From assembly GCA_027494165.1 (NCBI GenBank), contig JAOSJM010000005.1:1452461-1516460 (forward strand): a DNA stretch of 64,000 bases. Reading direction: 5' to 3'. The translations under genes and the position numbers were made by a program. Numbering within the stretch: position 1 is the first letter of the stretch; the number at the start of each line of letters is the position of its first letter. Of the stretch, positions 26,875 to 30,409 are shown piece after piece. The stretch comes from Acidimicrobiia bacterium. Its GTDB lineage: Bacteria; Actinomycetota; Acidimicrobiia; IMCC26256; JAOSJM01. Below the pieces are notes generated by a model, which did no database searches, had not been told where the DNA came from, and saw nothing but the letters and a program-made list of their open reading frames with translations.

Positions 26875-28465
26875 CTAGTGGACCTTGCAGTCGCTGGTGA
26901 GCTCGATGTCCTCGCCGGTGGCGTCGGGCGGGTCGACCGTGCAGAGGGTGCCCCACCCGCCTTCGAGGATCTCGGTGACGGTGTCGGGGAAGGCCCGGCG
27001 GTTGGCCTCGAGGGTCGGGCGCACGAGGTGGGTGGGGCCGACGTAGTCGGGGAAGGCGGGCAGCCACACCTCCTCCCACTCGCGGCCGAGCTGGTAGGGA
27101 GGGTCGGTCTCGGCGGGGCCCGTGTGGCGCTCGAGGGTGATGAGGACGAGCTGGTCCTCGGTGATGGCGAGGTGGCGGTCGGGTTCGAAGCCGTACTCGA
27201 GGCCGGCGAAGGTGGTCGTGAGGCCCTCGAGGGCGGTGACGACGGCCTCCCGGTCGGTGGTCCCGGCCCGGCGGACGGCCTCGACGAGGGCCCACAGGCC
27301 GTTGGCGGGGGACTCCTCGCCCCCGGTGGCGGGGATGCCGAGGTAGTCCTGCATCCAGGTGCGGATGGGGAAGGTCGGCAGGCCGATGAGGCCGCCCATG
27401 TGCCAGGTCGTGAGGCTCCCGGTCTTCGCCGCGTCGCCGGCCAGCTCGGCCCACTTCTTCTCGCCGGTGCCGCCGGGCCAGCCCATCACGTGCGGGCGCC
27501 AGGCCGGGCCCTTGGCCGTGGGGGGTGTCGACGTAGCCGGCACCGAGGGCGTCGAGCCCCTTCACGATCCCCGCGACGCTCTCCGCGGCTCCCCAGAGGC
27601 AGAGCGCCTGGGGAGCCGACTGCTGGAGCCGCTGGAGCTGGGCCCCGAAGTCGGCGGTGAAGAGGGTGAACTCCTCGACGCCGGCGACCGGCATGTCGTG
27701 CTTGGCGACCGCGTGCTCGAAGCTCTCCCGGAACGTCTGGCTGATGGTGCTGTCGTAGGCCAGGCCCACGCTCGCGTAGCCCCGGTCCTCCTTGGCGTAG
27801 CGGACCAGGAGGTCGAAGGCCATCTTGTCGGGCTGGATGAACTGGAAGATCGAGCGCTCGGGGACGTCGGGGTAGAGGAGCCCCTGGGACCACATGTCGT
27901 AGAAGACCGAGATGATCGGGATGCCGTCACGGGCGATCTGGGGGCGGGCCTCCTTGAGCCCGATGGGCGTGCACCACAGGATGCCGACGACGTCGGGGTC
28001 GGCGACGAGCTGGGCGTAGGCCCGGTTCGTGGCGTCGACCAGCTCCTCGGCCTTGGCGTTCACGATCTCGAGGGTGACCTTCGTGCCCTTGACGAGGCCC
28101 TCGCGCTCGATGTGCTCCATGGCGGCCCGGAGCGAGCGGTCGACGACGTCGCCGACGAACTGGCCGAGGCCCTCGAGGGGGGCGATGACGCCGATCTTCA
28201 GGCTGGACGGCAGGGTGGTGCCGCCGTCGCCTCCGCCGCTCCCGCCGGTCCCCGTCGTGCTCCGGGTGCCCCCCGTGCTCGGGCTCCCGCCGGAGTCCCC
28301 GCCGTCGCCGTCGCCGCCGCCGCACCCGGCGAGAGCGCCCCAGGCCCCGATCAGGGCCATCCCGGCCAGGCTGCTGCGGGCGGCCCACTCCATGAACACC
28401 CGCCGGTCGACGGGGCGGCGGATCAGGTCGTCGGCGCTGATGCGGATGGGCTCGTGCTCGGCCAC
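26875..28465 (-). CDS. ABC transporter substrate-binding lipoprotein (LivK/amide-binding family), paralog 1, apparent frameshift near 27520-27525
   Basis: Tat/lipoprotein signal RRVFMEWAARSSLAGMALIGAWGALAGCGG followed by a periplasmic binding fold. The C-terminal 222 aa (ORF 26875-27543) are in another frame. Removing one G from the six-G run reconstitutes YVDTPTAKGPAWRPHV, which matches the paralog. Confidence 0.75.
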
Positions 28466-28577
28466 GGCCGCCTCCTGTGTGGGGCCCCCGGAGGGCGCGG
28501 ATCCGCTGGAAGTCGGGCGAGTGTGACCTATGCGACGATCGGGTGCAAGAGGGCGAGCCCGACCCGCCGTCGCCTGC

Positions 28578-30134
28578 TCAGTGGATCTTGCAGTCGTTGC
28601 TGAGCTCGATGTCCTCGCCGGTGGCGTCGGGCGGGTCGACCGTGCAGAGGGTGCCCCACCCGCCTTCGAGGATCTCGGTGACGGTGTCGGGGAAGGCCCG
28701 GCGGTTGGCCTCGAGGGTCGGGCGCACGAGGTGGGTGGGGCCGACGTAGTCGGGGAAGGCGGGCAGCCACACCTCCTCCCACTCGCGGCCGAGCTGGTAG
28801 GGAGGGTCGGTCTCGGCGGGACCCGTGTAGCGCTCGAGCGACACCAGCACCACCTGGTCCTCGGTGATGGCGAGGTGGCGGTCGGGTTCGAAGCCGTACT
28901 CGAGGCCGGCGAAGGTGGTCGTGAGGCCCTCGAGGGCGGTGACGACGGCCCGCCGGTCGGTGGTCCCGGCCCGGCGGACGGCCTCGACGAGGGCCCACAG
29001 GCCGTTGGCGGGGGACTCCTCGCCCCCGGTGGCGGGGACGCCGAGGTAGTCCTGCATCCAGGTGCGGATCGGAAGCGAGGGCAGGCCGATGAGGCCGCCC
29101 ATGTGCCAGGCGGTGAGGGTCCCGGTCTTCGCCGCGTCGCCGGCCAGCTCGGCCCACTTCTTCTCCCCGGTCCCGCCGGGGGAGCCGAGGACGTGCGGGC
29201 GCCACTGCGAGCCCCGGGCCGTGGGCGTGTCGACGTAGCTCGCGCCGATCGCGTCGAGGCCCTGGACGATCCCGGCCGTGTTCTCGGCCAGGCCCCAGAC
29301 GAAGAGGCAGTGGCTTCCCTGGTCCCCCAGCCGCTGGAGCTGGGCGCCGTAGTCGGCGCTGAAGATGTTGAACTGCTCGACGCCGGCCACCGAGAGGCCG
29401 TGCTTGTCGATGGCCCGCTCGAACCCCGTCCGGTAGACCTCGCCGATGCTGCTGTCGTAGAAGAGCCCGGCGCTGGCGTAGCCGCGGTCCTCCTTCGCGT
29501 AGCGCATGAGGACGTCCATGGCCATCGAGTCGGGCATGAGGAGCTGGAACACCGAGCGCTCCGGCCCGTCGGGGTAGAGCCAGTCCTCGGACCAGGCGTC
29601 GTAGAAGACCGAGATCACCGGGATGCCGTCGCGGGCGATCTGGGCCCGGGACTCGGGGAGCCCGACGGGCGAGCACCAGAGGATGCCGACGACGTCGGGG
29701 TCGGCGACGAGCTGGGCGTACGCCTTGCCCGTGGCGTCGGCCAGCTCCTCGGCCTTGGCGTTCACGATCTCGTAGGAGACCTTCGTGCCCTTGACGAGGC
29801 CCTCGCGCTCGATGTGCTCCATGGCGGATCTCAGGGAGTGGTCGACGATGTCGCCGATGAACTTCCCGAGCCCCTCCATGGGCGCGATCACCCCGATCTT
29901 GAGGGTCGGCGGGAGCGTCCCGCCGTCGCCCTCGCCGTCGCCGGTGCCGGTCCCGGTGGTCCGCCCGGTCCGGTCGGAGTCGTCGTCGCCGCAGCCGGAC
30001 AGCCCGCCCCACGCCCCGAGCAGGGCCATCCCGGCCAGGCTGGTGCGCCCGGCCCACCGGAGGAACACCCGGCGGTCCACCGGGTGGCGGACCACGTCGT
30101 CGGCGGGGACCCGGAGAGGCTCGTGCTCGGACAT
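28578..30134 (-). CDS. ABC transporter substrate-binding lipoprotein (LivK/amide-binding family), paralog 2 (intact)
   Basis: ATG 30132-30134 gives MSEHEPLRVPADDVVRHPVDRRVFLRWAGRTSLAGMALLGAWGGLSGCG and a 518-aa protein. Its 3' ~650 bp are about 95 % identical in DNA to paralog 1. Confidence 0.85.
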   Translation of the reverse strand: MSEHEPLRVPADDVVRHPVDRRVFLRWAGRTSLAGMALLGAWGGLSGCGDDDSDRTGRTTGTGTGDGEGDGGTLPPTLKIGVIAPMEGLGKFIGDIVDHSLRSAMEHIEREGLVKGTKVSYEIVNAKAEELADATGKAYAQLVADPDVVGILWCSPVGLPESRAQIARDGIPVISVFYDAWSEDWLYPDGPERSVFQLLMPDSMAMDVLMRYAKEDRGYASAGLFYDSSIGEVYRTGFERAIDKHGLSVAGVEQFNIFSADYGAQLQRLGDQGSHCLFVWGLAENTAGIVQGLDAIGASYVDTPTARGSQWRPHVLGSPGGTGEKKWAELAGDAAKTGTLTAWHMGGLIGLPSLPIRTWMQDYLGVPATGGEESPANGLWALVEAVRRAGTTDRRAVVTALEGLTTTFAGLEYGFEPDRHLAITEDQVVLVSLERYTGPAETDPPYQLGREWEEVWLPAFPDYVGPTHLVRPTLEANRRAFPDTVTEILEGGWGTLCTVDPPDATGEDIELSNDCKIH

Positions 30135-30325
30135 GACCCCGTCCCTTCGCTGGCCCGTCGGGGGCCGAGGGGTGGCCGCCGGCCCGCGTGGCGGGATCAT
30201 GGCGGAGGCGAGGCGGGGTCGCAAGGACCCGTGTCGTGGCGCCGATCCGGCGATCGGATCGTGCGCCGGGCCGACCGGGGCCATGGAGGAGCGGCCCCCG
30301 TCGCCTGGTAGATTGCGACGCTCGC

Positions 30326-30409
30326 GCGCGAGTGGCGGAATTGGCAGACGCGCAGGATTCAGGTTCCTGTGTCCGCAAGGACGTGGGGGTTCAAGTCCCC
30401 CCTCGCGCA
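30326..30409 (+). tRNA. tRNA-Leu (anticodon CAG), long variable arm, no encoded CCA
   Basis: Acceptor stem GCGCGAG/CTCGCGC, D-arm GCGGAATTGGCAGACGC, anticodon stem-loop CAGGA-TTCAGGT-TCCTG, long variable arm, T-arm GGGGGTTCAAGTCCCCC and discriminator A. Coordinates are +/-2 nt. Confidence 0.85.

Follow-up and report, generated by a model that had tools for sequence, protein, structure and literature searches.

Mosaic divergence and probable gene conversion between tandem solute-binding lipoprotein genes of a Liv-type operon in an Acidimicrobiia bacterium

Two tandem paralogous genes for solute-binding lipoproteins, here called g2 and g1, head an ATP-binding cassette (ABC) importer operon in a stretch of 64,000 nucleotides (nt) of an Acidimicrobiia genome (contig JAOSJM010000005.1, positions 1,452,461 to 1,516,460, assembly GCA_027494165.1; hereafter the window). 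Their divergence is mosaic, with DNA identity of 79.3% over the first 309 codons and 94.9% over the last 208, and the change extends to silent sites. Gene conversion between g1 and g2, to which a probability of roughly 0.78 is assigned, would account for this pattern, and the patchiness of the alignment suggests that it probably took place in more than one event. The locus is a new example of known, ordinary processes, namely partial conversion and the use of two binding proteins per importer, and is of little importance beyond this genome. It offers a clean single-genome case of partial concerted evolution in tandem transporter binding proteins, in which silent-site controls separate conversion from constraint.

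Silent-site mosaic between the two copies

The operon occupies the minus strand and runs from 30134 to 23200 in the order g2-g1-livH-livMG-livF (coordinates are those of the window, whose G+C content is 73.8%). The upstream gene, g2 (28578..30134, minus strand), is intact by open reading frame (ORF) and translation and encodes 518 residues, and its downstream paralogue, g1 (26875..28465, minus strand), spans 1591 nt, starts with GTG and has an AGGAGG ribosome-binding site. Both genes encode a lipobox and match the Pfam family Peripla_BP_6, which agrees with an earlier, sequence-only reading of the locus that had described tandem paralogous solute-binding lipoproteins. The same reading had placed the pair at the end of a livF-livMG-livH operon; the genes adjoin the pair as it said, with Pfam and NCBIfam matches, but the direction of transcription puts the pair at the 5′ start, in the order binding protein-livH-livMG-livF.

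Global DNA and codon alignments of g1 and g2 delimit the mosaic. The proportion of synonymous differences (pS) is 0.297 in the first 309 codons and 0.092 in the last 208, and protein identity is 71% in the mature N part (residues 77-310) and 93% in the C part (residues 311-518), the former value being close to the 70% proposed earlier for the N-terminal halves. The homogenised 3′ segment of g1 (26875..27500, minus strand) pairs with 28578..29203 of g2 (minus strand) over 626 aligned nt, with 34 differences and 94.6% identity. Nearly identical 3′ DNA of about 650 bp had thus been rightly recognized, as had the C-termini (...TSDCKVH in g1, ...SNDCKIH in g2), while the 1700-nt offset implied by the earlier coordinates has to be corrected, the true register in the alignment being 1703 nt.

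Within the 3′ segment, perfect tracts of 220, 97 and 86 nt are found. The longest (26898..27117, minus strand, equivalent to g2 28601-28820) ends 22 nt ahead of the stop codon. It is bordered at 27118..27150 (minus strand, equivalent to g2 28821-28853) by an island with 10 differences in 33 nt, which appears unconverted and, on the alignment, is taken to divide at least two conversion tracts. Five differences fall in the final 24 nt before the stop codons, which are themselves different (TAG versus TGA); past them no similarity remains, and the downstream spacers are unrelated. A second, smaller region of low divergence is seen in the 5′ part (27978..28125, minus strand, equivalent to g2 29680-29827), where perfect tracts of 50, 32 and 41 nt occur, sliding pS is 0.07-0.10, and a run of 28 codons without synonymous difference was reached in 964 of 50,000 permutations. 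Either strong conservation or a conversion tract that is older or shorter may account for this patch.

The decisive comparison concerns silent sites and uses only codons that specify the same amino acid in g1 and g2. Before alignment column 335, 50 of 218 such codons differ synonymously, and after it 6 of 173, an approximately five-fold lower synonymous divergence in the 3′ part (maximum chi-square 29.8, a value reached in 0 of 20,000 permutations). A stretch of 74 codons, the longest free of silent differences, was reached in 20 of 100,000 permutations. Orthologues from 31 related loci served as a control: across nine comparisons of orthologues, silent differences make up a fraction of about 0.31-0.37 in the N part and 0.32-0.44 in the C part, equal or higher in the latter, versus 0.207 and 0.040 for g1 and g2. 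The only other reasonably close tandem pair of the family (L008a and L008b) shows uniform divergence (56% and 57%). Since the silent sites of orthologue pairs show no drop in the C part, regional constraint does not explain the mosaic.

The following course of events is proposed. The binding-protein gene heading an HAAT-type (Liv-like) operon was duplicated in tandem in this Acidimicrobiia lineage, and the copies then diverged over their first three-fifths, to 79% identity in DNA and 71% in protein, with amino acid change unusually fast relative to silent change. In the last two-fifths, one copy would time and again have replaced the sequence of the other by non-reciprocal homologous recombination, that is, intrachromosomal gene conversion. 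The outcome of such a process would be the mosaic of 220-, 97- and 86-nt perfect tracts with one unconverted island. The sequence-only reading had left the choice between partial gene conversion and duplication. The island, the tract ends inside the gene and the pattern at silent sites favour conversion, and the partial duplication is disfavoured as the identity stops before the stop codon. The near-identity lies inside homologous sequence, stops at 26898 without spreading into the flanks and is patchy, so that non-reciprocal conversion fits better than partial duplication.

The reading frame of g1 and rival accounts of the mosaic

As assembled, g1 is out of frame by +1, a point that escaped the sequence-only reading; the shift is seen in the DNA alignment, in frame analysis and in a frame plot of G+C at third codon positions (GC3) that switches at the same place. 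The extra base lies in a G6 run (27520..27525; C6 on the coding strand), where g2 has ACGCCCAC, some 20-50 nt upstream of the start of high identity. With one base removed, g1 encodes 529 residues; owing to the high GC content of the DNA, the wrong frame meets no stop until 26831 and yields an ORF of 544 codons with a nonsense tail. At 74% GC, an ORF caller would therefore report a g1 protein of plausible length with a nonsense C-terminal tail. In the corrected protein, none of the 102 positions conserved to at least 90% among 26 orthologues has been lost. Where g1 and g2 differ, the family majority is followed by g1 at 22 positions, by g2 at 27 and by neither at 35. The complete set of conserved positions and the even split of differences give no sign that g1 is decaying.

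Comparable breaks were located elsewhere by applying the GC3 frame plot to the whole window, followed by translation and Pfam searches. A PknB-like Ser/Thr kinase gene (13076-14996, minus strand) is split near 14040-14075, with the kinase domain in ORF 12129..14996 and four PASTA domains in ORF 13076..14077; the frame changes in a linker containing G5 and G6 runs, and the wrong-frame ORF enters the downstream gene for an HhH-GPD (endonuclease III-like) protein. In a molybdopterin oxidoreductase gene (40625-43033, minus strand), the Fe4S4 domain and positions 137-352 of the Molybdopterin profile are in one frame and positions 1-131 in another (ORF 42154..42621), which requires a pair of mutually compensating frameshifts, both at G/C runs in a stretch of about 450 nt (around 42640-42644 and 42184-42227). 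An AMP-binding, acyl-CoA ligase-like gene (54621-56401, minus strand) has about 78 N-terminal profile positions off-frame, the break lying at a G5 run (55869-55873) that interrupts the motif ...FVPLNYRLP|DEQLRALL.... The operon itself may hold a further case. For LivM, the first transmembrane helix can be read in frame ahead of the earliest possible start (25664), yet that frame has no ATG, GTG or TTG, and an ATG overlapping the livH stop (around 25877) stands in another frame; removal of one base from the G6 run at 25824-25829 would join them. The true livM start is probably upstream, near 25877, and the break may be another homopolymer error or reflect a non-canonical start.

Five or six breaks in 64 kb, some of them in normally indispensable genes, point to homopolymer errors of the assembly, and the g1 frameshift is most likely such a sequencing error. 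Alternatively, the shift could be real and g1 a very recent pseudogene, or a switchable gene that slips at G6. The assembled frame is indeed broken at the run, and homopolymer runs are known to slip in vivo. This alternative is nevertheless unlikely, given that the 102 conserved positions and the symmetric divergence reveal no other decay of g1, and that the homopolymer breaks in the PknB-like kinase, the molybdopterin oxidoreductase (two) and the acyl-CoA ligase-like gene suggest systematic sequencing error. Gene calls from this assembly need frameshift-aware correction, as further homopolymer frame breaks are present in the window.

For the mosaic itself, the rival that survives best is a single unequal crossover or partial re-duplication, in which the 5′ part of an older paralogue was joined to the 3′ part of g2 with no repeated conversion. 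One sharp change point, near codon column 335, accounts for most of the signal, and tandem paralogues are prone to unequal crossover, as in the lpl lipoprotein clusters of S. aureus, which have been shuffled in this way (PMC2568036). Such an origin is nonetheless quite improbable here. Identity produced by a crossover would pass the stop codon into the spacer, whereas it ends 22 nt earlier and the spacers are unrelated. Moreover, the segment is itself a mosaic, in which the 33-nt island with its 10 differences and the scattered, graded divergence between 27500 and 27337 stand beside zero differences from 27117 to 26898.

A further rival attributes the tandem copy or the close agreement of the 3′ parts to an artefact of assembly or polishing, created by mis-assembly or by cross-mapping reads. 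The assembly does contain errors, several genes being broken at G/C homopolymers, but an artefact of this kind is very improbable. Between the copies there are 21% differences over about 930 nt and a 33-nt indel in the linker; their flanks are unrelated, each has its own ribosome-binding site, and all family-conserved residues are retained in both. Cross-polishing cannot raise an identity of 79% to 95-100%, ordinary long reads span the 1.7-kb repeat unit, and tandem pairs are present in relatives.

Least credible of all is the absence of recombination, with the 3′ part merely under much stronger protein or nucleotide constraint: conservation in the family is higher in the C part, where orthologues are only about 4 points more identical to the g1 or g2 protein and where 56 of the 102 highly conserved columns lie, but silent sites there are as variable as those of the N part in every orthologue pair tested, which effectively refutes constraint, 220 nt without one silent change are not expected of protein constraint, and a search for riboswitches and other RNA families over 26000-31500 found only a tRNA, no RNA family or other feature overlapping the homogenised segment.

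Several observations weigh against conversion between g1 and g2 and temper the probability given above. In neighbour-joining trees, g1 and g2 are sisters in both parts (174 of 200 and 200 of 200 bootstraps), so there is no phylogenetic incongruence between an unconverted part that follows orthology and a converted part that follows the genome; with the nearest relatives at no more than about 63% identity, this test has little power. Identity to the best relatives is 60-63%, the evidence is drawn from a single genome and assembly, and the donor and direction of conversion are not readable from the pair. The closest solved structures are only 18% identical to the two proteins. Finally, GC3 is 98%, so that silent sites have few states and the distances are rough.

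The distance of the relatives is apparent from all searches made. An exact-protein look-up for a close relative of the locus gave no match, the best match of the protein search has 63% identity, and the genome scan returned 31 loci at no more than 62%; these nearest relatives of the window are uncultured Acidimicrobiia. A motif specific to the pair was not found in metagenomes by a degenerate-DNA scan. The GC3 value also has consequences of its own. It stands at 98% in the coding regions of g1 and g2 and at 86-94% in orthologues; silent sites alternate almost only between G and C, which makes standard corrections of synonymous divergence (dS) unreliable for this genome. GC-biased conversion can leave no signal here, GC3 being 97-99% in both parts of both genes.

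Partial homogenisation by gene conversion is itself well documented among bacterial paralogues (survey in PMC6053082). The g1/g2 pair resembles the known cases of interlocus conversion in that part of the gene is homogenised, tracts of hundreds of bases lie inside homology, and silent and replacement sites are affected together. The tufA and tufB genes are an example of such conversion and concerted evolution; in contrast to pairs of that type, g1 and g2 show partial and mosaic homogenisation rather than homogenisation over the whole length, in one genome and without phylogenetic incongruence. The tandem lipoprotein cluster lpl of S. aureus has a central conserved block, and its 5′ and 3′ variable regions are shuffled among many copies and strains (PMC2568036, Tsuru & Kobayashi 2008). 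Both systems consist of tandem lipoprotein paralogues in which a conserved segment, lying beside diverging segments, is a substrate of homologous recombination, but the present locus has two copies and a 3′-terminal homogenised block, and conversion would take the place of shuffling.

The binding proteins and their probable transporter

Both products have the features of lipoproteins exported by the twin-arginine translocation (Tat) pathway. A twin-arginine motif and a lipobox occur in each (DRRVFM...LAGC in g1, DRRVFL...LSGC in g2), with a hydrophobic stretch and the consensus L-[AS]-[GA]-C, by which they are predicted to be Tat-exported lipoproteins; R21, R22 and F24 are invariant across the alignment of the binding-protein family, and one homologue (P0070) carries PF10518. 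A low-complexity linker rich in Gly, Ser, Asp and Thr follows in both, with a 33-nt difference in length between the copies. The family profile PF13458 (Peripla_BP_6) is matched with 84.6 bits by g2 (E = 1.3e-23) and with 77.6 bits by the N part of g1, against a gathering cut-off of 31.7. In g2 this core comprises residues 77-423, and an AlphaFold model is confident for residues 77-430, with a predicted local distance difference test (pLDDT) value of roughly 80-97 over most of that length. A Foldseek search with the model retrieved the type I binding proteins 4q6w, 4mpt and 4n0q (target-normalised template-modelling values 0.81-0.86, E = 1e-18 to 1e-21). Profile, fold and gene context identify g1 and g2 products as type I periplasmic binding proteins, of the LivJ/LivK-like kind that serves HAAT ABC importers.

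The ligands of the nearest structures include 3-hydroxybenzoate, leucine and others, and at 18% identity these do not allow a ligand to be named for g1 or g2. No hint of the substrate came from the sequence search of the PDB, the fold search, NCBIfam equivalogs or the genes neighbouring the operon in relatives.

Past the Peripla_BP_6 core, the proteins have a C-terminal extension of about 95 residues (g2 residues ~424-518, window 28578-28865) without Pfam match. The extension is conserved across the whole family of ~500-residue Acidimicrobiia binding proteins and ends in C-K-[IV]-H. It contains near-invariant cysteines, Cys497 and Cys515, and the AlphaFold pLDDT is low there (51-76).

The membrane and ATPase components are encoded downstream. 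A livH-type permease gene of 303 codons (25872..26783, minus strand) is the next gene 3′ of g1; its product matches Pfam BPD_transp_2 and, below curated cut-offs, NCBIfam LivH/UrtB-like models, and its position beside the binding-protein gene is kept in more than 20 related loci. It is followed by a livM-livG fusion of permease and ATPase (23940..25664, minus strand; Pfam BPD_transp_2, ABC_tran and BCA_ABC_TP_C) and by a livF-type ATPase gene (23200..23943, minus strand), the last of the operon, assigned from Pfam, NCBIfam and related loci. By analogy with known importers, the products of g1 and g2 most likely both feed this one LivH/LivM-G/LivF-type transporter, and that both copies serve one transporter is probable because the operon of relatives nearly always has a single binding protein.

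The unconverted part has changed quickly at the protein level. Its ratio of nonsynonymous to synonymous proportions (pN/pS) is 0.62 at a pS of 0.285, versus 0.09-0.21 in orthologue pairs of similar pS, and alignment combined with the secondary structure of the model places substitutions in most of the loops after β-strands. In type I binding proteins these loops are the sites of ligand contact. The fast amino acid change makes it plausible that g1 and g2 differ in specificity and provide two for one permease, a possibility suggested by their sequences, and the locus is thus a candidate for two specificities on one HAAT-type importer in uncultured Acidimicrobiia.

A division of labour between the lobes, however, does not describe the pair. 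The polypeptide of a type I binding protein passes from lobe to lobe three times, with the ligand lodged between the two and each of them docking on one subunit of the permease. Mapped by the register of the Pfam profile and this known topology, the putatively converted part begins near position 215 of the profile, which has 343 positions, and would therefore include the closing portion of lobe 2, the latter half of lobe 1, the final crossover and the tail of about 95 residues. The earlier proposal of a ligand-binding lobe that diverged beside a shared permease-docking lobe fails on this point: pieces of both lobes are in the converted part, and both functions involve both lobes. It is conceivable, though doubtful, that the mosaic is kept by selection and is no passing accident, the fast amino acid change of the N part reflecting a split in ligand specificity and recurrent conversion holding the C part identical in both proteins, its Cys-containing, family-specific extension of about 95 residues included, so that each stays matched to one permease. 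If true, an uncharacterised family of Acidimicrobiia binding proteins would show in nature the design ‘swap the sensor, keep the adaptor’. Divergent islands that withstand conversion have been recognised as a hint that selection is at work (PMC3728101).

The closest functional parallel is found in E. coli, where the binding proteins LivJ and LivK have different specificities and use one LivHMGF permease (PMC5807212). As in that system, paralogous type I binding proteins are encoded beside livH, livM, livG and livF, and fold, Pfam family and operon context correspond. The differences are that g1 and g2 have only about 18% identity to solved Liv-type proteins, no NCBIfam equivalog match, the character of Tat lipoproteins with a Gly/Ser/Asp-rich linker and the extension of about 95 residues, and a fused livM-livG. 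A 79%/95% mosaic of identity is not known from livJ and livK. Another parallel is the Salmonella pair HisJ and ArgT (LAO), adjacent binding proteins of about 70% identity that share HisQMP and are the classical source of the idea that a conserved region serves permease docking. Here too adjacent paralogous binding proteins are used by one membrane complex, but HisJ and ArgT are type II binding proteins of the PAAT family, unlike g1 and g2, and we know of no localised near-identity in them that has been attributed to conversion.

Related operons, the tRNA gene and neighbouring genes

More than 20 related loci have the order binding protein-livH-livMG-livF, and almost all of them contain just one binding-protein gene. 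Two of these loci, L008 and L029, have two binding-protein genes before livH, an arrangement which indicates that duplication is real biology in this family. In the tandem pair of L008 (504-3649, the same as L033), L008b adjoins livH and belongs to the main orthologue clade, and L008a, the distal copy, is the nearest outgroup of both g1 and g2, support having been checked at the g1/g2 node only. This topology hints that the pair in the window possibly descended from the ‘distal’ type, or from an older two-gene arrangement that was homogenised.

The fusion of livM and livG is present in the window (23940-25664) and in all relatives. In L032 (10475-13090) and L033 (4599-7199), the called product of 866-871 residues also takes in the livF-type ATPase, which would make it a permease-ATPase-ATPase triple fusion unless a stop was missed or the frame is in error there. 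Scans for sigma-70 promoters and terminators gave nothing informative in such high-GC DNA.

A tRNA-Leu(CAG) gene (30326..30410, plus strand) adjoins the pair, as had been reported from the sequence; it is divergent from the operon, lies 191 nt upstream of the g2 start, and is identified by ARAGORN and by Rfam (RF00005, 53.8 bits). The accompanying suggestion that this gene marks an integration or recombination hotspot finds nothing in its favour. A search of the 64-kb window for attachment-site (att)-like repeats detected no second copy of the tRNA 3′ end, no integrase is encoded among the genes near the tRNA, composition around it is not atypical (GC is flat at 71-76%), and the operon stands on the 5′ side of the tRNA. 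In 20 related loci no tRNA lies beside the operon. The adjacency looks incidental and the tRNA gene a neighbour outside the mechanism.

Past the tRNA, genes encode a holin-like membrane protein, EncFtn, encapsulin and a luciferase-like monooxygenase. The gene for the EncFtn-like encapsulated ferritin (PF22277, E = 5e-39) is directly followed by that for the encapsulin shell (Linocin_M18, E = 3.5e-75), at 31023-32401 on the plus strand, and the two form an operon for iron storage in a nanocompartment, close behind the tRNA gene. A second pair of LivG/LivF-like ABC ATPase genes, whose products are 35-43% identical to those of the Liv-type operon, is located at the right edge of the window (62360-63963, minus strand).

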